Program-made: the position numbers and the translations under genes
Shown here: positions 1,389-18,259 of the stretch, piece by piece
Layout of the letters: each line of letters opens with the position of its first letter
Position numbering within the stretch: position 1 is the stretch's first letter
Notes under the pieces: model-generated
Seen by the model: the letters and a program-made list of their open reading frames with translations, nothing else
What the model was told of the DNA's origin: nothing
Database searches by the model: none
Source of the DNA: a virus
Taxonomy: Duplodnaviria; Caudoviricetes
DNA: 64,000 nt
IMG/VR virus record: IMGVR_UViG_2513237098_000002
Location: 1-64,000 of that record
Strand: one strand, 5' to 3'

Positions 1389-1546
1389 TCAACTCCCACT
1401 ATATATAGGGCAAAATGCCCGCTATCAACCGTCCCGGTAGTTCTTTGATTTTGATCAGTTTTTGCCGCGCGATGCGCGGCCACCAGCATCACCGAGACGA
1501 TCGCGCTCAGCGCCAGATAGAGCTTCGGTGCGGTGATCATGATCAT
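1385..1546 (-). CDS. Small membrane protein (53 aa)
   Basis: Manual translation MIMITAPKLYLALSAIVSVMLVAAH..., one hydrophobic helix, overlapping junctions. Confidence 0.4.
   Translation of the reverse strand: MIMITAPKLYLALSAIVSVMLVAAHRAAKTDQNQRTTGTVDSGHFALYIVGVE
1402..1429 (-). promoter_or_regulatory. Sigma70-like promoter of xis-int with a palindromic operator in the spacer
   Basis: Minus strand TTGATA-17nt-TATATA; spacer contains GGGCATTTTGCCC; SD GGGAG before xis ATG. Confidence 0.6.
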
Positions 1547-1797
1547 AGCTTTCGCACCACCGGGATATCCAGCAGGGCCATATAGTTGCAGCCGCGCTGC
1601 CGGATGTTGGTCAGCACGTTGCAGCGGTCGCAGCTGCCGTACTCGTGGAAGGTGTTGGGGGTTTCCATGGTCAGCCGGGCGCCGCAGCCGGCGCAGGTGA
1701 ATTTCTGGAAGACCGTGGCGCCCATGGCAATTCGCTCATCGGCCTGGCGCCGGACTTCTTCAAACGGATAGTCCTGATACTCAGTCGCTGTCGCCAT
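1543..1797 (-). CDS. Small zinc-ribbon protein
   Basis: MATATEYQDY start; FTCAGCG and CDRC motifs. Confidence 0.65.
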   Translation of the reverse strand: MATATEYQDYPFEEVRRQADERIAMGATVFQKFTCAGCGARLTMETPNTFHEYGSCDRCNVLTNIRQRGCNYMALLDIPVVRKL

Positions 1798-2053
1798 TGA
1801 ACTGCCTCGACGCTGGAATCTTGCTGCCGATGTTCTGATGCAGTTGATCGATGAACCAGCCATAGACCTGGCGCTTGGCATCGTTCGAAACGATCACGTC
1901 AAGCACCCGGTGAATATTGCTGCCGAACGCGCCAAGGATCACGGTGACCGGCGTGTCGTCCGGAAGCCGTTCCAGAATGTCACCGATATCGTCGGTGAGT
2001 TCGGTCAGTAGCTCACAGAGCGCTTCACGCTCTCGTTGCGTCATCACTGGCAT
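1781..2053 (-). CDS. Hypothetical phage protein
   Basis: MPVMTQRE start, tightly packed operon. Confidence 0.6.
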   Translation of the reverse strand: MPVMTQREREALCELLTELTDDIGDILERLPDDTPVTVILGAFGSNIHRVLDVIVSNDAKRQVYGWFIDQLHQNIGSKIPASRQFNGDSD

Positions 2054-2216
2054 GAGGAGTCTCCCTTGCGTGATTGGAACGCGTGCGCGCCAGCAATCGC
2101 ATGACGCGGTTGGCTTCACTGATGAAGTCGTGGCGATGACAGTGCTCGCCGTCTTGTCGGCACTGATCGCCGCAGCACAGGGCGATCAATAGGTCGGTGT
2201 AGATATCGTGAGTCAT
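2025..2216 (-). CDS. Small Cys/His-rich hypothetical protein
   Basis: MTHDIYTDLLIALCCGDQC...HCHRH. Confidence 0.5.
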   Translation of the reverse strand: MTHDIYTDLLIALCCGDQCRQDGEHCHRHDFISEANRVMRLLARTRSNHARETPHASDDATRA

Positions 2217-2243
2217 GTTCCGTGAAGCCAATTGAAGAAGGGT

Positions 2244-2633
2244 TCAGGCGACGGGGACGAAGTCGCCGAGCGCCAGCCGGATCTCGTTGTCGTATTTGCG
2301 GCAGGTGTACATGATCGTCGTATGATCGCGGTCGAAGGCGCGACCGATCCGGCGCCACGACGCGCCCGAGACCACGTGCGTAAACGAGATCAAGATCTGA
2401 CGGATATGGATGATGCGCCGGCCGCGGGACCTTGCGCGGAGATCGTCGACCTCGACACCGAAGGCGCGGGCGCCGGCATTGCGGCACGCCACCGTCGCAG
2501 ACCAAGAGGGACAACCGTCGATACGGCGATGCACTTCGGCGAGCGCCCAGGCCAGGCGCTCGGCGTCGGTGGTCAGTTCAAGGCGATAGGAAAAGGGAGC
2601 GGGGGTCGCGGGCTCGGCGAGTTTCAGTAGCAT
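2244..2633 (-). CDS. DnaA C-terminal (domain IV) HTH-like protein
   Basis: FGVEVDDLRARSR...RQI...SWRRIGRAFDRDHTTIMY matches the Bac_DnaA_C pattern. Confidence 0.8.
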   Translation of the reverse strand: MLLKLAEPATPAPFSYRLELTTDAERLAWALAEVHRRIDGCPSWSATVACRNAGARAFGVEVDDLRARSRGRRIIHIRQILISFTHVVSGASWRRIGRAFDRDHTTIMYTCRKYDNEIRLALGDFVPVA

Positions 2634-2678
2634 CGGTAGCCCTCCTGCCGTTGTCGCTCTTGGGAGGCGACTTCACGC

Positions 2679-2707
2679 AGGAAAGATTAACCGACGATAC
2701 TTGTCAA
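2679..2707 (-). promoter_or_regulatory. Candidate leftward early promoter
   Basis: Perfect TTGACA on minus strand (2702-2707) between repressor and leftward operon; -10 weak. Confidence 0.4.
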
Positions 2708-2748
2708 CGAAATTTCACGCTCGATTGAAAAGTTCAACCGGCGGGATA

Positions 2749-3537
2749 TCAGAGCGGGTGCACAACAGCCATAACGCGACCGATGATCCGCTTGTCGGGG
2801 AGCTGGGTCGTGCCCCATACCACGTTGGCGCCGTCGGCATCGCCTTGCAGATAGACACCGGGTTCGTTGTCGATCCCGGTGCGCGATTGATCGACGATTG
2901 CATAGTCGCCGCGCTCTAGTTTGGTTTCGCCCTCCGACCAGCTCGCCACCACGCGCATCACCATGACATCGGTAGGCGAGCAATTGAGACCCTTCTCTAA
3001 CGTCGTGTGGGAAATCATCCAGTGGCCGAATTCGTGCGCGACGCTGAATTGGGCGGTCTGCCAATTCGTGATCAGTCGGGCAAGCTTCCGATAATTGTTG
3101 ACCTCAGGAACGCGCTGATACGCTTCATCTATAGCGGTGTTGTGCGCTTCCGTCGTCGTCGGGCGGCGCTCGAGGGTTGTCATTGTGGCCGCAGTCAAAC
3201 TGCTTTTGCCAGCACCTGCGGGGACCTCAATGTTAGCGAAGTCCGGTGGCGGCCCTGACCCGGTCAACAGCCAATCCAAAGACACCTTTGTCATCTCAGC
3301 AAACTTGATCAACTTGCTGATCGGAATGTTTTCCACCGCGCCGGTCTCCCACGTCGAGAGCGCATTACGGGACATATTGAGCCTTTCGGCGATCTGATCG
3401 GCATGCAGTTTCCGCCCCAGCCGAACCGCTTTGATGCGGTCGCCGATACGGTTGCCGGCTAGGAGCCTGGCTAATTCTGCGATCGGGCCGGTCATTAGAT
3501 CGTCAGGAGCGTCGGAGGGCATCAAGTTCCTCTTCAA
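2749..3537 (-). CDS. CI-like XRE repressor with degenerate S24-like C-terminus
   Basis: IGDRIKAVRLGRKLHADQIAERLNMSRNALSTWETG HTH; divergent from Cro-like gene. Confidence 0.85.
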   Translation of the reverse strand: MKRNLMPSDAPDDLMTGPIAELARLLAGNRIGDRIKAVRLGRKLHADQIAERLNMSRNALSTWETGAVENIPISKLIKFAEMTKVSLDWLLTGSGPPPDFANIEVPAGAGKSSLTAATMTTLERRPTTTEAHNTAIDEAYQRVPEVNNYRKLARLITNWQTAQFSVAHEFGHWMISHTTLEKGLNCSPTDVMVMRVVASWSEGETKLERGDYAIVDQSRTGIDNEPGVYLQGDADGANVVWGTTQLPDKRIIGRVMAVVHPL

Positions 3538-3614
3538 TGGTGGTGGATAGCTGTCTTCACGCTTGGCTGATTTCGGCTTATCCCTGATGCCTCACCAGCA
3601 AGCGAGGCGAGGCG

Positions 3615-3842
3615 ATGCCGAAGCGGAAGGCAAATGCCGTGATCGAGGCGATCCGGACCCAGCGCGGGCTGGCGGCCAAACTGGCAAAAGTGTGCGGAAT
3701 CTCGCGGTCGGCGGTCTGGAAATGGCAGCAAGTACCGGCCGAGCACGCCCTGGCAGTCGCAACGTTCCTGCAGCTGAAGCGCCATGAAGTCCGGCCTGAT
3801 CTCTACCCTGCCAACCTGCCCGAAGAACGGGTAGGTGCCTAA
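3615..3842 (+). CDS. Cro-like (YdaS/Cro) regulator
   Basis: LAKVCGISRSAVWKWQQVP...HEVRPDLY. Confidence 0.85.
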   Translation: MPKRKANAVIEAIRTQRGLAAKLAKVCGISRSAVWKWQQVPAEHALAVATFLQLKRHEVRPDLYPANLPEERVGA

Positions 3843-3900
3843 CGACTCTGTCATCTGCACTGAAGACCTATGTCAACTTTTTCTCACGGTCAACTAACCA

Positions 3901-4362
3901 TTGCAATGCCAGATGAAAAATTCCCAACCCGCGATCCCACTGCCGCCTCCCGTCCGGGTTGGGAAGAGTAAGTCGCGCAATCGCAGTTACCTCGGCGCGC
4001 CCAGCGAACACCAGCTCCAGGTGCGGGTCCTCGAAATTCTCGCCTACACCAAACGTCCCGAGATTTTTGTTTTTGCGATTCCGAACCAGAGCAACCGGCA
4101 TATCCGCAACGCAGTGCGGATGAAGGCCGAAGGTCTTCGGTCGGGCATCGCCGATCTCTGCATTCTGTTTCCACGCGACGAAGGGTCGGTGGCCTGGCTC
4201 GAGCTAAAGAAGCGCGGCGGATCGCTCACCGACGAGCAGAAGGGCTTTCGCGCGATCTGTCAGCGGCTCGGGATCCGCTGGGCCGTGGCGAAGTCGGTCG
4301 AAGAAGCGCTCGCCGTGCTGCAGGGCTGGGGCGTGCTCAAGCCTGGCGTGGTGATTCTATGA
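3901..4362 (+). CDS. VRR-NUC domain nuclease
   Basis: SEHQLQ, GLRSGIADL, WLELKK, LTDEQKGF motifs. Confidence 0.85.
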   Translation: MQCQMKNSQPAIPLPPPVRVGKSKSRNRSYLGAPSEHQLQVRVLEILAYTKRPEIFVFAIPNQSNRHIRNAVRMKAEGLRSGIADLCILFPRDEGSVAWLELKKRGGSLTDEQKGFRAICQRLGIRWAVAKSVEEALAVLQGWGVLKPGVVIL

Positions 4363-4526
4363 GCCAACGCGCACGCGATAGTCACGACAACGATTGCCTT
4401 AAGGCGGCGCGCCGGTTCGTCAACTGGTTCGACGCGCATGAGGATCGTTTGCGCGAGCAATTTATCGAGGCGGATTTCTATGAGTTGCAGGAAATTGCGG
4501 ATCGTTGTCGGGAGCAACTGCGATGA
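4359..4526 (+). CDS. Hypothetical protein (55 aa)
   Basis: Manual translation MSQRARDSHDNDCLKAARRFVNWFDAH...; ATGA overlaps at both ends. Confidence 0.6.
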   Translation: MSQRARDSHDNDCLKAARRFVNWFDAHEDRLREQFIEADFYELQEIADRCREQLR

Positions 4527-4852
4527 CGCTGTTCCGCGATTCCTTATCCGACAAGTTGACCCAGCCTGATCCAACACTGACCCGGCAGGCGCGCGCGACC
4601 TATCCCGGCATGGCGCACTTCGCCGGCACCTATGGCGACAGCAACATGACCTGCCGGCAATGCCTGCACTGGGAGCACCGCGCTTACGCCTATCACAGCA
4701 AGAACGGCAAATACCACGGGCTGATCAAGCCGGCGCCGTGCCGCAAATACCGGGCGATCACCGGCAAGACCGGCCCTGCGGTGCCCGACAATGCCGAGGC
4801 TTGCAAATATTTCGAGTGGAATGTCGCACATCCGCGGAGGTTTGCCCAATGA
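4523..4852 (+). CDS. Cys-rich hypothetical phage protein
   Basis: TCRQCLHW...C...ACKYFE pattern; operonic. Confidence 0.65.
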   Translation: MTLFRDSLSDKLTQPDPTLTRQARATYPGMAHFAGTYGDSNMTCRQCLHWEHRAYAYHSKNGKYHGLIKPAPCRKYRAITGKTGPAVPDNAEACKYFEWNVAHPRRFAQ

Positions 4853-9701: not shown

Positions 9702-11786
9702 ATGACCGAGTCCGGCGGCATCATCGACTTCAACTTTGCCAAGCTGCAAAGCGAATTGGGCAAGGCGAGCCTTGATGTCGGCGATATCCGCGAACGGCTG
9801 AACGCCAGCGCGCGGTCGTTCGTCGAATGGCTGTTCTCTGGTCGCGCGCTGATCACGCGCGGCGGCCATGAGGCCCGGATCGGCGATGTCGACGGTAATG
9901 TCGGAACGTCATTGTCGATTCATCTGACCGGATCGAACACCGGCCTGTGGAAAGACCACGCCACCAGCGAGAGCGGTGACCTGATCACGCTGTACCGCAT
10001 GTACATGGGCTACGGCGAAAGCAAGGATGATTTCAAGCAGGCGATCAAGGAGATCGCCAAGGATTTTCTGCACGATCCGATCGAGGTCGAGCGGCCAACC
10101 TTCAGGCCGACGCCGGAGATGGTGATCCGGTCCAAGAAGGAGAAGTTCGGCACCAAGCCGCGCGATGACGATGTCGAATTGGGCGCGCCGGTCGCCACCT
10201 TTAAATATTTCAACACCCGGGGCGAGATCACGGCGTCGGTGGTGCGCTATGAGCCGGACGGCACCCGCGCCAGCAAGACCTTCCGGCCGTTCTGCTACCG
10301 CGACTTCGACGGCAAGAAGCGCTGGGCCGCGGGCGCACCGGATATCCGGCCGCTGTACCGGCTGCCCGAGATCTCGCTGAGCGGTTCGGTGATCCTGGTC
10401 GAGGGCGAGGGCAAGGCCGACGCCTTGGCCAGGCTCGGCATCGAGGCGACCTCGGCGATGCAGGGCGCCAATGCCCCGATCGACAAGACCGATTGGTCGC
10501 CGCTCGCCGGCAAGCGGGTGACGATCTGGCCGGACAACGATCAGCCGGGCTTCGACTATGCCAACACCGTCGCCAAGCGGCTGCTACAGCTGAACTGCAC
10601 CGTGTACGGCATCAACCCACCGGCCGATGCCCCGATCGCCTGGGATGCCGCCGACTGTATCGCCGAGGGCCGCGATCCGCACGAGCTGATCAACGCGGCG
10701 GTTTTGTATTCGGGGCAGGACGATATCCGCACCCGGGTCCGAATTCGGATCATCGATATCGATGATCTGGAAAACCTGCCGGCGCCGCAATTCCTGATCG
10801 ACAACGTCATCACCGAAGGCGGGTTGTCGGTGCTGTGGGGCCCGCCGGGCGCGATGAAGTCGTTCGTTGCCCTCGACATGGGCTTGTGTGTCGGCACCGG
10901 TTACTTATGGCATGGCAAAACTACCAGGCTTGGCACCGTGGTCTATCTTGCCGCTGAAGGCGCGCACGGTCTCGGCCAGCGCGCGGTAGGCTGGCGCAAT
11001 ATCCGCGGCAAGGGCCTGGCAAAGCCGAAGTTCAAGATCATTCCGCATTCAATCGCGATGACTGGTGTCGACGATTTGAATGCGCTGATCGAGGCCATTC
11101 TCAAGCTCGATGAACTGCCGATCCTGATCATCATCGATACGCTGGCGCGCACGTTCGGGGCCGGCAACGAGAACCAGCAGTCCGACATGAATGCCTACGT
11201 CAACGCCGCCGATAAACTGCGCGAGGCAACCGGCGCGCATGTGATGATCGTGCATCATTCCGGCGTGCACGAGGTCAATCGCGAGCGCGGCTCCAACGTG
11301 CTGCGCGGCGCCGCCGATACGGTGATCAAGGTCGCCCGCAAGGGCAACAAAATCGACATCGTCAACCGCGCGCCGGCCGGCAAGCAGAAGGATTTCGAAG
11401 AGTTCGACACTGTCAAGCTGCGCGCGGTGATCGAGCATTGGCAGACCGGCGAGAACGGGGAGGTCGACCATTCGACGGTCATTCTCACCTTGCGCGAGGA
11501 CGGCGACAAGGAGGTGGACATGGATCAAGAGCCCAAGACCGAGACGGCACAGGAGACCAAATCGAGGGTGACCGGCAAGAACCAGAAACTGGTGCTCAGC
11601 GCCCTCAAGGCGTCCGCTGAGCCGCTGACGGCAACCACCCTGATCCTGCGCACCGGGCTGGACAAAAATCGCATGTACGAGGTTCTGAACGATCTGGTCG
11701 AGAAGGGTCTGGTGGCTTGTGAGGACAGCGCTGACGGCAACGCCGCGCTCTGGAACATCACCGATGAGGGCCGCGATGTTCTGTAG
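9702..11786 (+). CDS. TOPRIM primase-AAA_25 (RepA-like) helicase with C-terminal wHTH
   Basis: VEGEGKADAL, IWPDND, WDAAD (TOPRIM); GPPGAMKS, IIIDTLAR, VHHSG (SF4/AAA_25). Confidence 0.9.
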   Translation: MTESGGIIDFNFAKLQSELGKASLDVGDIRERLNASARSFVEWLFSGRALITRGGHEARIGDVDGNVGTSLSIHLTGSNTGLWKDHATSESGDLITLYRMYMGYGESKDDFKQAIKEIAKDFLHDPIEVERPTFRPTPEMVIRSKKEKFGTKPRDDDVELGAPVATFKYFNTRGEITASVVRYEPDGTRASKTFRPFCYRDFDGKKRWAAGAPDIRPLYRLPEISLSGSVILVEGEGKADALARLGIEATSAMQGANAPIDKTDWSPLAGKRVTIWPDNDQPGFDYANTVAKRLLQLNCTVYGINPPADAPIAWDAADCIAEGRDPHELINAAVLYSGQDDIRTRVRIRIIDIDDLENLPAPQFLIDNVITEGGLSVLWGPPGAMKSFVALDMGLCVGTGYLWHGKTTRLGTVVYLAAEGAHGLGQRAVGWRNIRGKGLAKPKFKIIPHSIAMTGVDDLNALIEAILKLDELPILIIIDTLARTFGAGNENQQSDMNAYVNAADKLREATGAHVMIVHHSGVHEVNRERGSNVLRGAADTVIKVARKGNKIDIVNRAPAGKQKDFEEFDTVKLRAVIEHWQTGENGEVDHSTVILTLREDGDKEVDMDQEPKTETAQETKSRVTGKNQKLVLSALKASAEPLTATTLILRTGLDKNRMYEVLNDLVEKGLVACEDSADGNAALWNITDEGRDVL

Positions 11787-13271: not shown

Positions 13272-13526
13272 ATGGCCCCGCCGCGAAAGAAACACAGAAA
13301 GCCTGGTGAAACGCATGCCGTTCATTTGCGGTTGCCGGCGGACGTCTTCAGACGGATCGAGGCGAAGGCCGCGATGGCAGGCTGGCCACTCAATCGCGTC
13401 GTCGTCAAGGAGTTGGTCGCTTTCCCAGATCTGGAAAAGCTGAAGAAACTTGGCGAGCTGATCGCGGACATGGAAGTTGTTTTGGCGCGACACGGAGCTA
13501 GGCTCAAGGAAAAGGAATTTATCTGA
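13272..13526 (+). CDS. Arc-like ribbon-helix-helix protein
   Basis: VHLRLPADVFRRIEAKAAMAGWPLNRVVV. Confidence 0.75.
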   Translation: MAPPRKKHRKPGETHAVHLRLPADVFRRIEAKAAMAGWPLNRVVVKELVAFPDLEKLKKLGELIADMEVVLARHGARLKEKEFI

Positions 13527-14119
13527 TGATCGAGCTGCCACAGGGTGCCGCGCGCGACTATCTGCAGGTGTTCGGTGTGGCGGCGATCTATGTGGCGGTG
13601 TCGCCCGATGGCCAGTGTTGCCGGATTGGCAGCTCGCTCGATCTGGCGCGGACGCAGGGCTTCCTGGGCAGGTTTGAGGTTGATCAGGTGTTTTGGGTGC
13701 GAGACGCCAGGACGGCGCGGCTGGTGGCGCGATTGGCGCGGGCCGGTCTGCCGACGTTGGGTGGTGGCCTGGTGCGAGCGTCGAGGGAGATCGCCGGCCG
13801 GGCGGTTGAGGCGGCGGCAGGGCGCCTGGGCATGCGGCTGACCGAGCACCAGGCAGCGCTAATGAGGGTGTCCAGCGCCCTCGACCAGGTTGATGCGATG
13901 TTGGCGCTGGCCCATGCCGACGGCGCGCTGAGCTGGTTTAACCGGGCCTACAGGGCTTATCGGCTGGCCAGCACTGGAAGGACCATGCTGTACGGGGAAG
14001 CCAAGGTGAGGCTCCGCAACGCCGTGGTGAGGCGGATCATGGCCGGTGGCGACCTGCAGGATCTGCGGGAAGAGATCTTCGGCGAGGCTATCCACCACCA
14101 ATTCAAAAAATCTGCTTGA
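13526..14119 (+). CDS. Hypothetical protein (weak GIY-YIG/T5orf172-like N-terminus)
   Basis: IYVAVSPDGQCCRIGSSLDL. Confidence 0.55.
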   Translation: MIELPQGAARDYLQVFGVAAIYVAVSPDGQCCRIGSSLDLARTQGFLGRFEVDQVFWVRDARTARLVARLARAGLPTLGGGLVRASREIAGRAVEAAAGRLGMRLTEHQAALMRVSSALDQVDAMLALAHADGALSWFNRAYRAYRLASTGRTMLYGEAKVRLRNAVVRRIMAGGDLQDLREEIFGEAIHHQFKKSA

Positions 14120-14180: not shown

Positions 14181-14216
14181 CGGCTTCCTGGGCGTTGCCC
14201 TAGGGACCGGTTTTTT
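14181..14216 (+). terminator. Hairpin plus T6
   Basis: cctgggc-gtt-gccctagg stem followed by ccggtttttt. Confidence 0.45.
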
Positions 14217-14527
14217 CATTCGTCACCATCGTCATCGCCATCGTCGTCATCGTTGACGACGCGCTTATCGCTGAGCCGGTCGAGGATGAACCTGATTTGG
14301 GCGGGCTTGACGCCCGCGGTTCTCAGCACTTCTTCCGGCCCGATGTCCTTGGCCAGCATCAGCTCGAGCACCATGGCCACCGGCCGCGCCACGTGATTGT
14401 TTTGCTTCCATCGCCGTGCCGTGCGTTCGTTGACACCGAAGAAAGTGGATGCGCCGCGTTCGGTCCAACCCAGTCGGGTCAGGATCTCGAGATAGCGTTT
14501 CGTATTCATGGTCGGTGCTGCCATCAT
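14216..14527 (-). CDS. XRE-like HTH regulator with acidic tail
   Basis: LTRLGWTERGASTFFGVNERTARRW. Confidence 0.75.
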   Translation of the reverse strand: MMAAPTMNTKRYLEILTRLGWTERGASTFFGVNERTARRWKQNNHVARPVAMVLELMLAKDIGPEEVLRTAGVKPAQIRFILDRLSDKRVVNDDDDGDDDGDE

Positions 14528-14536
14528 GGCGTTGAT

Positions 14537-14606
14537 CCCTTAGGGCTTCTTGGCGATGGTGTTTCGTACTGCGCACCAGGAGGGTGCGCAGGGTCGAAAC
14601 ATCACC
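14537..14606 (-). repeat. Structured leader repeat copy A (divergent)
   Basis: TTTCG-ACC-CTGCGCACC/GGTGCGCAG-TA-CGAAA hairpin before the HTH gene. Confidence 0.8.
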
Positions 14607-14829
14607 CGTCGACTAGATCGTTGCTTACGACGATTCTGAGCAATTGACCATCAACGTAACGGTAGTTCACCGGGTCATCGCTTTCGGTGGCGCGATATTC
14701 CCGCACCAAGGTCCAGCGCATCGCGAGATCGCGCACATTGGCCTCGGCCTCTTCTTTGGTGGCAAAGCGCAAGGCGTTGCCGACCCATTGGCCGCTATTG
14801 TCGGCGATGACTTCTGGCTTCCAAGACAT
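14602..14829 (-). CDS. Hypothetical protein (75 aa)
   Basis: MSWKPEVIADNSGQWVGNALRFATKEEAE; SD GGAAGGA. Confidence 0.75.
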   Translation of the reverse strand: MSWKPEVIADNSGQWVGNALRFATKEEAEANVRDLAMRWTLVREYRATESDDPVNYRYVDGQLLRIVVSNDLVDG

Positions 14830-14840
14830 TGCAAGGTATC

Positions 14841-14918
14841 CTTCCGGGCTTGGCCCATTTGAATGAAGCGGGAGCGCTTCGTTCTGCGCACCGAGCGATG
14901 CGCAGGGTCGAAAAGCTC
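14841..14918 (-). repeat. Structured leader repeat copy B
   Basis: Long hairpin + GCTTCATTCAA + GGGCCAAGCCC + GGAAGGA. Confidence 0.9.
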
Positions 14919-14932
14919 GCAGCCTTGCGTTG

Positions 14933-15193
14933 TCAGTTCGGCTTGTTGCGATAGCTTCGTTCGATGATCCGACCGCGTGGGTCGTAGGTGGTCGTGGTGC
15001 TGCCGCTGGTCGATGAGCGCGCCGAGACGCGCCCGCCGGCATCGTAGAACGTGGTCGTGCCTTGGCTATCGGTAGCGGAGCGGCCGATCACCCGGCCGCC
15101 CGCGTCGTAGTGGGTTCGCTGCCGCGCCTGGGCGGCGGTCAACGTGACCGCAACCAACGCGGCAGCAGAGATCATCAACTTGATCATTCTCAT
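14933..15193 (-). CDS. Exported protein with YDAxGR repeats
   Basis: Signal peptide ...TAAQA; HYDAGGR, FYDAGGR, TYDPRGR. Confidence 0.75.
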   Translation of the reverse strand: MRMIKLMISAAALVAVTLTAAQARQRTHYDAGGRVIGRSATDSQGTTTFYDAGGRVSARSSTSGSTTTTYDPRGRIIERSYRNKPN

Positions 15194-15205
15194 TTTTGCT
15201 TCTCC

Positions 15206-15505
15206 TTAGCGTAGCGATGGCGAGATGGTGTAGCAGCGCGACATATTGCCGGATGAGCACACCATCTGTGGCCGCATCGGAATTTTGATGATTTCCGGGT
15301 CAGGCCATATGCTGCCGTTCACGATCAGCGGCGCTGCAAGGATCGCAAGGCTGGTGCTTCTGGGATCGAATATCGGAAGCTCCGGTGGTTTGGTGTGTTT
15401 TGGCAATACCGGGATCGGCACGCTTGCCCAGATGCTGTCGCTTTGCGCGTGGCTCGCGCCACTCAACGCGATGACAGCGGCAACAGTAGCTATGATCAGT
15501 CTCAT
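15206..15505 (-). CDS. Exported Pro-rich hypothetical protein
   Basis: Signal peptide ...GASHA. Confidence 0.6.
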   Translation of the reverse strand: MRLIIATVAAVIALSGASHAQSDSIWASVPIPVLPKHTKPPELPIFDPRSTSLAILAAPLIVNGSIWPDPEIIKIPMRPQMVCSSGNMSRCYTISPSLR

Positions 15506-15559
15506 TTCAGGTTATTCCTTTGTGATGCAATGTGAGAAATTTATCCGGAGGCGCGCTCA

Positions 15560-16204
15560 TCACACCGACCCGTCGTCTTTCTTGCCGGGCCTCACCGGTG
15601 CGCTCGGCACGGGCGATGTCGGCGGTACGGGCGACGTTGCCTGCGGCTGTCGCGGCACAGGCGACGTGGCGGTGCCCCCGCTGTTGGCGATCTTGGCGAT
15701 GCAGAACTTGAACCATTTCGTTGCATGGCGACTGCCAATCATCTGCGCTGTCCAAGGCGGCTCATTGCCTTCCTTGAACGAGATCACAAGTTGATCGGCA
15801 TCGGCGAAGTCTTGAACGAACCCGACAGCCTGCTCGCTCGCGATGCTGATCTGGATCAGCGAGCTGCCGCTGGTTGAGGTTATCGTCGTGCCAGAGCCCT
15901 CGCGCACGCCCCTGTCGAATGAGATCGACATCGGGACACTGATGTCGGCCGGGAATGCCCAGTTCGACTTGCTGATGTGCATGAACAGCCCGGTTTCGTT
16001 GGACCATTTCATCGATGCGGTGCCGATTGCGCCGCTGGGGAACGTCCATTGGCCGGAGATGACGCACATCGGCCTCCCTTCACTGTTCCGCGCGTAGTGG
16101 CTCGTTTGCCAGTAATTACCCGTATAGAGCCGCGTGACGTTCTCAGCCTGGGCGGCGGTGGTAGTCAGCAGCGCCGCGGCTGCGGCCATAACAAGATGTT
16201 TCAT
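15560..16204 (-). CDS. Exported hypothetical protein
   Basis: Signal peptide ...TAAQA; Pro-rich C-tail. Confidence 0.75.
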   Translation of the reverse strand: MKHLVMAAAAALLTTTAAQAENVTRLYTGNYWQTSHYARNSEGRPMCVISGQWTFPSGAIGTASMKWSNETGLFMHISKSNWAFPADISVPMSISFDRGVREGSGTTITSTSGSSLIQISIASEQAVGFVQDFADADQLVISFKEGNEPPWTAQMIGSRHATKWFKFCIAKIANSGGTATSPVPRQPQATSPVPPTSPVPSAPVRPGKKDDGSV

Positions 16205-16215
16205 TCCTAGTTTCC

Positions 16216-16295
16216 TTCCGGGCTTAGCCCATTTGAATGAAGCGGGGAGCGCTTCGTGCTGCGCACTGGGAAATGCGCAGGGTCGAAAAGCTTCC
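16216..16295 (-). repeat. Structured leader repeat copy C
   Basis: Same architecture as B, different loop. Confidence 0.9.
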
Positions 16296-16300
16296 GACGA

Positions 16301-16552
16301 TTAGCGGGGACCAAACGGAAACGGGGATGGCACCGCGATTTGTGGCGATGACGGCGGTCCGTCTGGCCGGCATTCGGCGGCGGCGCGGATCGAGATCTTG
16401 TGCCCCTGCAGTTCGCGCTCGATCACGCTCGGATACAGATCGCGCGCCGCGGCCTTGCAGGCTTCGCGATTGGCGAAGTCGGTCACGACCGACGACACCG
16501 AGACCGAGCCGGTATCGGTGAGCGCGAGCACGGTGGCGAACAGTTTCCACAT
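16301..16552 (-). CDS. Small exported hypothetical protein
   Basis: MWKLFATVLAL; F.NREAC..AA...AEC. Confidence 0.65.
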   Translation of the reverse strand: MWKLFATVLALTDTGSVSVSSVVTDFANREACKAAARDLYPSVIERELQGHKISIRAAAECRPDGPPSSPQIAVPSPFPFGPR

Positions 16553-16556
16553 CGGC

Positions 16557-17027
16557 TTAGCCTTGCAGCGGCGGCACTGAAGAGGTGACGGGCAGGGGTG
16601 GTTGGCTGACTTCGATCCAGCCCTTGCGCCGATAGCTATCGACGATGATGCGATAGGCGAAGAAGGCATAGACGAACCAGCCGACCAAAACGCCGAAGCC
16701 GCCGAACGGTACCAGGAAGATAAATATCAACGCCGTGATGCCGGCGTGCAGCCACGCTTCTTTGTAGGCCAGATAGAAACAGCCGAAGAAGAACGTCAGC
16801 CAGAACGCCGAGCCTTTGTTGATCCTGACGACCGCACCGGTCTGAGGGTTGCGAAAGGCAGTCTCGTAGGCTTGCGGCTGGGACGGCACGCTGAAGGGCC
16901 GGCCGGTGCTGCCCATCGCCGGCATTGCGATCACTTCGGCGCGCAGCTTCTCGAATTCGTCTTGGCTGATCAGCCCCTGGTCGCGCATTTCGGCCAGCTC
17001 TTTGATCTTGTCGATTTTGTTGGTCAT
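16557..17027 (-). CDS. SHOCT domain plus multi-TM (DUF2628-like) membrane protein
   Basis: IKELAEMRDQGLISQDEFEKLRAEVI; FFGCFYLAYKEAW. Confidence 0.8.
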   Translation of the reverse strand: MTNKIDKIKELAEMRDQGLISQDEFEKLRAEVIAMPAMGSTGRPFSVPSQPQAYETAFRNPQTGAVVRINKGSAFWLTFFFGCFYLAYKEAWLHAGITALIFIFLVPFGGFGVLVGWFVYAFFAYRIIVDSYRRKGWIEVSQPPLPVTSSVPPLQG

Positions 17028-17038
17028 CTAATCCAATC

Positions 17039-17116
17039 TTTCCGGGCTTAGCCCTTTTGAATGAAGCGGAGTTGCTTCGTGCTGCGGCGACATGCGCCGC
17101 AGTGTCGAAACATCCC
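17039..17116 (-). repeat. Structured leader repeat copy D
   Basis: Inner stem changed to CTGCGGCG/CGCCGCAG (compensatory). Confidence 0.9.
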
Positions 17117-17118
17117 GG

Positions 17119-17235
17119 CTAGTGCAGTTTGGCGTTCGCCGGTTTCTGATGCAGTTGCGCTAAAAAGGCTTCGATCAGCTTTTGCATGCGTTCCAGGTTG
17201 GCGAGCCGTTGCATGATCAATTCGATTTCCGACAT
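17119..17235 (-). CDS. Small helical protein (38 aa)
   Basis: Manual translation MSEIELIMQRLANLERMQKLIEAFL... Confidence 0.5.
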   Translation of the reverse strand: MSEIELIMQRLANLERMQKLIEAFLAQLHQKPANAKLH

Positions 17236-17244
17236 CGTTAGTAT

Positions 17245-17571
17245 TCACTCGGTGAACCAGAGGTCGATGTGGTCGAGCGGAAAGTCGGTGAATGCGATTT
17301 CCTCGCGATAGACGACGTTGTCGTTGCCGTCTTCGCACACCAGCGTGGCTCGATTGTCCGCGACCTTCAGTTTCCAGACCTGAAATTCTTCGGTGCGAAC
17401 GACCGGCTCGAGCTGCAGCGTCGCGACCTTGTCGACCAGCCAGTATGCGCCGGCCTTCTCGGCGAGATACTGCACGCCTTCGGTGTAAGTGATGTTGCGC
17501 ATCAGGCTGTGGCGAAACCACTGCTCACTGCCAGTGAACTGCGCCAGATCAGCATGGGTAATGCTCGTCAT
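17245..17571 (-). CDS. DUF6876-like phage protein
   Basis: LAQFTGSEQW..H...YTEGVQYLAEKAGAYWL...FQVWKL...TDFPL. Confidence 0.75.
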   Translation of the reverse strand: MTSITHADLAQFTGSEQWFRHSLMRNITYTEGVQYLAEKAGAYWLVDKVATLQLEPVVRTEEFQVWKLKVADNRATLVCEDGNDNVVYREEIAFTDFPLDHIDLWFTE

Positions 17572-17579
17572 GGAATTCC

Positions 17580-17657
17580 TTTCCGGGCTTAGCCCTTGAA
17601 TGAAGCGGAGCGCTTCGTGCTGCGCAGGTGACGAGCTGCGCAATGTCGAAAAGCTCG
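17580..17657 (-). repeat. Structured leader repeat copy E (promoter-proximal)
   Basis: Same architecture; directly downstream of promoter and operators. Confidence 0.9.
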
Positions 17658-17670
17658 CCTTCCTATGTAA

Positions 17671-17722
17671 GCGGGCATTTTGCCCGCTTTCTATAAGTAG
17701 GGCATTTTGCCCGGTTTATCAA
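17671..17722 (-). promoter_or_regulatory. Promoter of the cassette operon with two palindromic operators
   Basis: Minus strand TTGATA-17nt-TACTTA; GGGCATTTTGCCC at 17673-17685 and 17700-17712. Confidence 0.7.
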
Positions 17723-17747
17723 GGTCAGCTGCAGAAGGAACTGCGCC

Positions 17748-17996
17748 ATGTGCTTTACCCTCGGATGGCTCGAGCAACTGATTGTTTGGCTGATCGTGGT
17801 TGGCGCGGTGGTCGCCATCATCAAGCTTTTGATTCCCTTCCTCGACAGCCTGACCGGCATGCCGATCATCGGGCGGATCCTGATCATCGTGCTGTGGGCC
17901 ATCGTGGCCATAGCGGTGGTGATCCTGGTGTTTGGGCTGCTGTCCTGCCTGTTGGGAGGGACAGGCACGCTTGGCTTTCCCCACCCAATCCGGTAG
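17748..17996 (+). CDS. Small multi-TM membrane protein (holin candidate)
   Basis: Two long hydrophobic segments in 82 aa. Confidence 0.7.
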   Translation: MCFTLGWLEQLIVWLIVVGAVVAIIKLLIPFLDSLTGMPIIGRILIIVLWAIVAIAVVILVFGLLSCLLGGTGTLGFPHPIR

Positions 17997-18259
17997 CCGC
18001 GTCGAGGATCTGCCGCCTTATCCGCCTGCACCGCCTTCAATCTGCAAGGGCTGTTGAGCCTGACCGGTAACCAATAACCTCGTTGTATCAATGGGTTGCA
18101 TGCGTAGAAGGCCATGCTACGTGGGACAGGTCAGGTTCCCTATGAGAACAGTTGTTCACGTGAGGGAATACAACGAGAACACGTGCTTGGCGTGCAATGC
18201 CCATGCGTTTGCATGGATAATGGAATTAAACAACTGAAATTATTGAGGAATATTCTTCC

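Follow-up and report, generated by a model that had tools for sequence, protein, structure and literature searches.

A prophage in the IMG/VR virus record IMGVR_UViG_2513237098_000002 (Duplodnaviria; Caudoviricetes) carries a nine-gene accessory operon that is punctuated by five copies of a hairpin element, which raises the question of what this element is and what it does between phage genes. We analysed positions 1 to 64,000 of the record (64,000 nucleotides (nt), hereafter the window) and refer to the five copies as A to E, E being the leader copy. The original prediction had proposed a structure-selected element heading unrelated, swappable genes, which it could not match to a known family. 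Our data confirm that the elements are copies of a previously undescribed, widespread structured RNA family placed between phage genes, with a characteristic strand, position and stop-codon register and a three-strand design.

Our own folds and a covariance model recovered all five minus-strand elements at the places first described and with the same architecture (Table 1). The main hairpin, H1, consists of an outer stem (P1) that ends in UUCG/CGAA, a 3x2 internal loop (ACC or ACA against CA, AA or UA), an inner stem (P2) and a variable terminal loop; downstream of it in copy E come a GCUUC strand, a small GC hairpin and the ribosome site that serves the DUF6876 gene. P2 reads CUGCGCA in A, B and C, CUGCGGCG in D, where the changes relative to A, B and C are compensatory, and UUGCGCAG in E, and P1 occurs as two covarying haplotypes, A-U/C-G in B, C and E versus G-C/U-A in A and D. 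All five fold more stably than shuffled versions of themselves (z −2.2 to −5.0), with a predicted −33.3 kcal/mol (z −2.95) for E, and RNAalifold on the five copies returned the same structure with compensatory pairs. The core pattern has five exact matches in the window, and eight when one mismatch is allowed, against 2.6 expected. A covariance model built from the five copies (R1) scored them at 60–99 bits (55–99 bits over the models used) and gave no matches beyond them when the whole window and the 9.9-Mb genome were searched.

The purine-rich Shine–Dalgarno sequence follows the small GC hairpin, as first noted, but this mini-hairpin (GGGCUAAGCCC), while present here, is a local embellishment of this prophage and no feature of the family. 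In copies B to E it has the form GGGC-UAA-GCCC (for example at 17585–17595), with a stop triplet in the loop, and this hairpin is restricted to the copies of this prophage. Copy A carries the inverted form CCC-UAA-GGG, with the ribosome site within its 3′ half.

A core pattern (TTCGAC..TGCG, gap, CGCAG.ACGAA), scanned over IMG/VR, led to 40 stretches in which R1 confirmed 80 matches, often five to eight per contig, and a second model (R2) built from these confirmed matches yielded 73 distinct sense copies, the window's five included (the first set). A separate metagenome scan with a stricter pattern added 57 loci and 80 further distinct copies (the second set), giving a total of 153 distinct copies in about 80 viral or metagenomic contigs. 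In both sets, all copies of any contig lie on one strand, which is the sense strand of the flanking open reading frames (ORFs). A metagenome contig of 4427 base pairs (bp) (L170, Ga0193743_1013810) has ten copies on one strand, amounting to about a sixth of its DNA; nearly every gene of 46–170 amino acids (aa) is bracketed by elements there, and many genes end 5 nt inside the next element. Among cellular genomes the element is rare, and it was found in four of 60 other genomes of the genus, in single copies only, and in none of the 150 other families of the same class that were searched. A pattern scan of the genome collection returned 96 matches, by our estimate about the number expected by chance, and the model confirmed only those from Bradyrhizobium and uncultured alphaproteobacteria. 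A blastn search with element B as query covered 50,697 phage records and 72,556 plasmids and gave only chance-level short matches or none, and tblastn of an array-linked ATPase and of DUF6876 against the same phage records found no cultured relative. Comparison with Rfam 15, including ROSE thermometers, nut/put-like elements and phage motifs, left the elements in the window unmatched at E-values up to 10, and six array-bearing loci gave no match at the gathering score, in agreement with the earlier failure to assign a known family. The covariance-model E-values are rough, and the contig flanks are short.

Selection for structure is evident from compensatory change in two separate sets. With both alignments fitted to the covariance model, 91.8% of cells were paired in the first set compared to 74.9% in shuffles, and 91.7% compared to 81.4% in the second; in neither set did any of 500 shuffles reach the observed pairing. 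Slid controls were paired at 30–47% in the first set and at 27–47% for both sets together. All seven P2 pairs and six P1 pairs changed on both sides in the first set, the second set has 15 covarying pairs, and over both sets compensatory changes affect all seven P2 pairs and six to seven P1 pairs. At least one copy per locus of the second set was selected by the pattern, so that the invariance of the pattern columns is partly imposed there; the covarying columns are unaffected. H1 has 17–18 pairs, with strands of 20–21 and 19–20 nt and mostly tetraloops, and a mean energy of −25 kcal/mol; this value, like the other energy-based inferences, is only a prediction. The asymmetric internal loop is 3x2 in most copies and most commonly ACA/CA. 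Its C, invariant in 69 of 73 copies, the UUCG/CGAA block and the first P2 pairs hardly vary among contigs that range from 42 to 67% G+C. We favour RNA over single-stranded DNA as the functional form because all copies run in the direction of the genes, each with a stop codon and a ribosome site; the wobble counts in the stems (68 G-U versus 49 A-C) do not decide between the two.

The element also has a third strand, which gives it a second structure. The 3′ arm of P1 (CGAAGC) can pair either with the 5′ arm (GUUUCG, with a conserved U-G pair) or with the downstream GCUUC to form an alternative hairpin, H2, which is often extended as GAAGCGCC with GGCG-A-CUUC. CUUC lies within about 30 nt downstream in 62 of 72 copies, and an H2 duplex of −7 kcal/mol or better is predicted in 65/72 and 65/74 copies (about 88%), with a mean duplex energy of −8.7 kcal/mol compared to −5.1 kcal/mol for shuffles. 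The predicted mean advantage of the H1 state over H2 is only 5.2 ± 3.4 kcal/mol; with the 5′ arm withheld from pairing, H2 is predicted to form in 66 of 71 copies, and the predicted minimum-energy fold of element B has the alternative hairpin formed, as GAAGCG/CGCUUC. All three strands have changed in a compensatory manner to CAUCG/CGAUGC/GCAUC at L025:2793, L032:9569 and L219:3262 and to GUUCUA/UAGAGC/GCUCU at L182:2387, and at L007:6980 the 3′ arm and the downstream strand have changed (GAAACACC/GGUGUUUU) with the 5′ arm unchanged. The near-invariance of the UUCG/CGAA block is thus explained by the constraint of three-way pairing. A target-site duplication, also considered, cannot give three-strand compensation. 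The original prediction had described GCTTCATTCAA as conserved and unpaired; it is indeed present in four of the five window copies (four exact, about one expected by chance), but it contains the third strand, and its GCUUC part would pair in H2. The diverged copy A has the 3′ arm CGAAAC and no alternative hairpin before the ribosome site of the HTH gene, and an orthologous minimal copy precedes a 93%-identical HTH gene in Bradyrhizobium sp. BRP22 (L165). At two loci (L020:641–745 and L012:2075–2168) an extra G+C hairpin with a U-run, terminator-like in appearance, lies between H2 and the ribosome site, and such junctions may also stop transcription.

A stop codon is built into the 5′ arm of about 60% of copies. 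In 38 of 73 copies of the first set and 46 of 74 of the second, the first base of the upstream stop lies 7 or 8 nt ahead of the anchor T in UUUCG, so that the stop supplies the opening bases of P1, and in a further 8 and 5 copies it falls within 3 nt more of that register. Stop triplets at the register close an ORF of at least 40 codons in 40/48 and 46/60 cases, compared to a background of 0.43. With the stop in this place, P2 starts 10 nt downstream of it, and the established size of the ribosome footprint puts the start of P2 just outside a terminating ribosome. In the window, the stop lies inside P1 only in A (the TGA of the 75-aa gene), 3–13 nt before P1 in B, C and D (in D, the TAG of the 38-aa gene at 3 nt), and is absent for E, which, as first proposed, sits in the leader with no genuine upstream ORF. 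H2 is kept in 26 of the 27 copies without a stop in P1, including E, indicating that a terminating ribosome cannot be the only trigger of the structural change. The element always lies between a stop codon and the next ribosome site, with a spacing of about 37 to 107 nt from hairpin to start codon.

The cargo genes behind the elements are heterogeneous and mostly of unknown type. Those of the window had been described as mostly exported or membrane proteins, which applies to five of the nine genes and needs only a minor correction to "mostly". The claim that the cargo is unrelated and swappable agrees with the comparison of contigs, in which the families of the 214-aa exported protein, DUF6876 and HTH recur immediately downstream of an element but in a changed order (the 214-aa gene, for example, has such homologues in L036 and L019). 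A comparison of loci L008 and L045 shows the element (95.5% identity) joining a common gene (88%) to non-homologous cassettes. Two repeats at these loci are unrelated to the element, namely a tandem repeat of about 33 bp at L045:4116–4274 (100% high-scoring segment pairs at offsets of 33) and internal repeats of a 237-aa gene at L008:11892–12314. The genome of the prophage also holds a paralogous operon (L159, approximately 1389–4618 on the plus strand, from G000 contig C181:9500–14500), with homologues of the SHOCT-membrane (80%), 83-aa (86%), RHS-repeat (65%) and HTH (35%) genes. These are joined by ATGA or short overlaps, and the operon has no element even with filters off; relative to it, the block of element C with genes 5 and 6 and the block of element B, gene 8 and element A look inserted. 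These comparisons support gene shuffling at the junctions, which, given the covariation of the stems, is more probably a consequence of an RNA-level function than a substitute for it.

The window represents a myovirus-type prophage in a 9.9-Mb Bradyrhizobium genome, and identical DNA is present in Bradyrhizobium sp. BRP22 (L053 and L148). The accessory operon is placed between the replication module and the terminase/portal/sheath module, and its genes follow in the order DUF6876, 38 aa, SHOCT-membrane, 83 aa, 214 aa, 99 aa, 86-aa RHS-repeat, 75 aa and HTH (Table 1). The 86-aa secreted protein (14933–15193, minus strand) matches the RHS/YD repeat family (Pfam PF05593, 3e-08), for which its size is unusually small; homologues occur in L012 and in the paralogous operon. 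No minus-strand promoter was found upstream of E by a consensus scan, and the promoter there is inferred. The operator-like palindrome GGGCATTTTGCCC of this control region has exactly three copies in the window, the third at 1408–1420 near the left prophage end, and is probably the operator of one regulator that ties the accessory operon to another promoter. A 150-aa minus-strand ORF (17663–18115) that ends 2 nt before E is spurious, because in relatives the amino-acid identity of its translation (66–73%) stays below the DNA identity (80%), whereas an 82-aa membrane protein on the opposite strand (17748–17996) is 86–95% identical in relatives. The real gene at this place thus encodes this very hydrophobic protein, which is kept in several genomes of the genus.

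Table 1. Coordinates of the elements and of other features in the window
Feature	Position	Strand	Remarks
AAA_25 protein of the replication module	9702–11786	+	
Terminator-like hairpin with flanking A and T runs	14185–14206		Between the convergent operon end and the plus-strand gene 13526–14119
Nine-gene accessory operon with elements	14216–17571	−	From the ORF list and Pfam
HTH protein gene	14216–14527	−	Last operon gene
Element A	14536–14608	−	Diverged copy; 59.6 bits (R1); fold z −5.0
Element B	14839–14922	−	Between the 86-aa RHS-repeat gene and the 75-aa gene; 98.6 bits (R1)
Element C	16213–16297	−	Between the 83-aa gene and the 214-aa exported protein; 94.8 bits (R1)
SHOCT-membrane gene	16557–17027	−	
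Element D	17037–17119	−	Between the 38-aa gene and the SHOCT/membrane gene; 85.5 bits (R1)
DUF6876 gene	17245–17571	−	First operon gene
Element E	17577–17660	−	Leader copy; 87.2 bits (R1), 59.6 bits (R2)
Two palindromic operator-like copies of GGGCATTTTGCCC	17673–17685, 17700–17712		Divergent control region upstream of E
Packaging and virion module	from 19096		TerL, portal, capsid-protease, sheath

What the element does must be judged from its design and distribution. Our preferred reading, held tentatively and at somewhat less than even odds, is that it is a cis-acting mRNA module serving as a standard phage gene junction, a signal for RNase III-type processing and insulation; the analogy to the RNase III sites of T7, named first in the original prediction, thus still fits best. 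From 5′ to 3′, the element comprises the upstream stop, usually as the opening bases of P1, H1, the GCUUC strand for H2, an A-rich spacer, the Shine–Dalgarno sequence and the start codon. Host RNase III, which is encoded in the host genome, or another double-strand-specific endonuclease would cut H1 at or near the internal loop, as in T7 early mRNA. P2 would then stay on the upstream cistron as a 3′ protective hairpin, and the freed 3′ arm would refold into H2, leaving at most a few unpaired 5′ bases, so that H2 becomes the 5′-terminal hairpin of the downstream cistron, directly before an A-rich standard ribosome site. Each cassette would in this way become an insulated message of defined stability. 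Being conserved and self-sufficient, the junctions also serve as joints for the exchange of gene cassettes. In shape and placement the element resembles a T7-type signal, with a helix of about 20 bp that is broken by an asymmetric internal loop and lies in the sense orientation between cistrons or in a leader. Several findings weigh against processing: the fixed-register in-frame stop is explained only indirectly, by compaction and by the position of P2 just outside the ribosome; H2 is missing from about 12% of copies, among them A and its orthologue in BRP22; and the UUCG/CGAA block and the loop C are nearly invariant even though RNase III requires little sequence specificity, which could point to a dedicated protein, although three-way pairing explains this as well.

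The stop register is accounted for more directly by a model driven by the ribosome, which we consider possible and place second to processing, with which it is compatible. A ribosome at the embedded stop would melt P1, H2 would form and downstream initiation would be altered, either by a hand-off of the terminating ribosome or by delayed re-closure, making the element a portable substitute for ATGA stop/start overlaps such as those that join the genes of the paralogous, element-free operon. The stop at a fixed register in the 5′ arm, in frame far above background, the start of P2 at the leading edge of the terminating ribosome and the mutual exclusion of H1 and H2, predicted to be about 5 kcal/mol apart, are all consistent with such a translational coupling or uncoupling switch. 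With the 5′ arm blocked, the ribosome site is predicted to become more accessible in 30 of 72 copies and less so in 7, and the start codon of copy C is predicted to change from 0.11 to 0.73 unpaired; the mean gain is small, however (+0.06), and absent in window copies E, D, B and A. The spacing from hairpin to start codon is loose for a hand-off, and H2 is equally conserved where the upstream stop is distant or missing. A nuclease could act at such junctions as well as a ribosome, and it is conceivable, though we would not count on it, that the element is a self-contained, portable two-state RNA switch that either of them flips from H1 to P2 plus H2, setting the translation or lifetime of the next cistron. 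That the element is instead an operator for a dedicated RNA-binding protein, encoded by phage or host and acting as a translational repressor, antiterminator or sequence-specific endoribonuclease, we regard as unlikely and rank third. A protein that recognised the invariant upper end of P1 together with the internal loop and the first pairs of P2 could control all cassettes at once; the near-invariance of UUCG/CGAA, of the loop C and of the first P2 pairs would suit it, and an HTH gene stands behind an element in the window, in L012 and in BRP22. The invariant block is the three-way pairing segment, however, and needs no protein to explain it; by inspection and by comparison with Rfam it is neither a k-turn nor a boxA/boxB site nor a ROSE element; and no protein family is common to more than six of about 30 element-bearing loci (about 7 kb on either side of each), the lack of a common partner favouring a host factor.

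Two further explanations rank lower. The element might be primarily a DNA-level linker or mobile cassette boundary for homologous recombination, like PeSL cassettes, with the hairpin secondary. The joint seen on comparing L008 with L045, the changed order of the three gene families and the apparently inserted blocks of the operon would all suit this, but a linker needs identity rather than compensation, and here the stems covary and the loops drift; the strict agreement with the direction of transcription, the stop and ribosome site built into the unit and its three-strand design point to selection at the RNA level, and PeSL-like promoters or terminators and attC cores are lacking. We therefore think a DNA-level role improbable and the shuffling more likely a by-product. 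The least probable explanation is a passive intercistronic structure that acts as a barrier to 3′–5′ exonucleases and Rho loading, without specific cleavage or switching. Intercistronic stabilisers such as those of Rhodobacter puf and the REP sequences of E. coli are precedents, and the stable hairpin does occupy the untranslated gap between cistrons; the covariation of the three strands in H2, the conserved internal loop and the leader copy would be left unexplained.

The finding would add a large and well-supported structured RNA family, with more than 150 distinct copies and no match in Rfam or in cultured phages, to phage biology. Uncultured soil phages and Bradyrhizobium prophages build accessory operons with a standard junction in which stop, structure and start signals are combined. 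If the two-state design works as inferred, it would explain how unrelated genes slotted into an operon are expressed predictably, and it would offer a template from nature for synthetic operon insulators. Were the element a portable switch, it would be the natural counterpart of synthetic bicistronic and RNA-processing insulators and would represent a novel class of translational coupling device, distributed widely among soil phages. The covariance model can be used as a marker for accessory-gene arrays in metagenomic phage contigs, and the element is a tractable analogue for the unexplained SAS/ESAS repeats of mycobacteriophages.

To place the element among known systems, we compared it with other repeated or switching elements. 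Integron attC sites, one of the identities suggested in the original prediction, do not apply, since neither the RYYYAAC nor the GTTRRRY core is present on either strand of the five elements and the 15 nt flanking them, and the element forms part of the translation signals. REP/BIME or REPIN sequences number tens to hundreds per host chromosome, scattered in both orientations, whereas the 9.9-Mb genome has only the five prophage copies, on a single strand. The loose resemblance to boxA/boxB (nut-like) sites is seen in the window copies only and is broken by family variants. Inspection shows no tandem G-A pairs, as would be found in a k-turn, and no similar repeats occur in the genome, as a mimic of a CRISPR repeat would imply. 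Stop-codon readthrough or bypass is inconsistent with the variable loop length and with a start codon of its own for each downstream gene. The translational attenuators of erm and cat and the coat/replicase coupling of MS2 are alike in that a ribosome frees a strand to re-pair and exclusive helices lie beside a ribosome site. Each of those devices stands alone, is specific to its gene and clearly sequesters the ribosome site, whereas in most copies of the present element, which forms a portable and repeated unit, sequestration is predicted to be weak or absent.

The closest known systems are the RNase III signals of T7, the SAS/ESAS repeats and the PeSL cassettes, none of which is homologous to the element. 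PeSL cassettes of T4-type phages are described as short repeated regulatory cassettes with a strong sigma-70 promoter and a terminator hairpin (PMC2839356), flanking small accessory ORFs at the joints of modular shuffling. The present element differs in sitting inside a single transcript and in having neither a promoter-like hexamer pair nor a U-run: a consensus scan found no promoter-like site within the five copies, no U-run lies inside them and no T-run follows H1 or H2 in any of them, which rules out a PeSL, a terminator or an attenuator. SAS/ESAS repeats of Cluster K mycobacteriophages occur in many copies of one orientation in non-structural genes, and their function is given as still unknown (PMC3203893); in the same description, an imperfect 17-bp inverted repeat with a variable spacer of 4–13 nt lies just before a ribosome-site motif and start codon. 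The element is analogous to them in layout; they differ from it in sequence and hosts, and here the inverted repeat is shown by covariation to fold. At up to three mismatches, the 13-bp SAS motif GGGATAGGAGCCC, which lies 3–8 bp before the start codon, has 19 matches in the window compared to 16.7 expected, none of them in an element, and neither an embedded stop nor an alternative hairpin was found among the features described for SAS/ESAS (PMC3203893).

T7 early mRNA, with its five signals (R0.3, R0.5, R1, R1.1 and R1.3), has several hairpins of about 60 nt, about two helical turns long with an asymmetric loop, between cistrons and after the promoter, and cleavage leaves a stabilising 3′ hairpin (PMC3867540, PMC6121014). 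R1.1, which lies between genes 1.0 and 1.1, is described as a hairpin of 60 nt whose internal loop is asymmetric (4/5), and it is a substrate of a rhizobial RNase III (PMC6121014); internal loops of this kind are reported to lead to single-strand cleavage and stabilising 3′ hairpins (PMC3867540). The T7 signals bear no sequence relationship to the present element, which usually has a stop codon in its stem and adds a third strand that would provide a 5′ hairpin, an integral ribosome site and arrays of up to ten copies in 4.4 kb; cleavage by RNase III is known for T7 and predicted for the element. In the literature searched, neither an embedded stop nor a three-strand alternative hairpin was found for any of the three systems.

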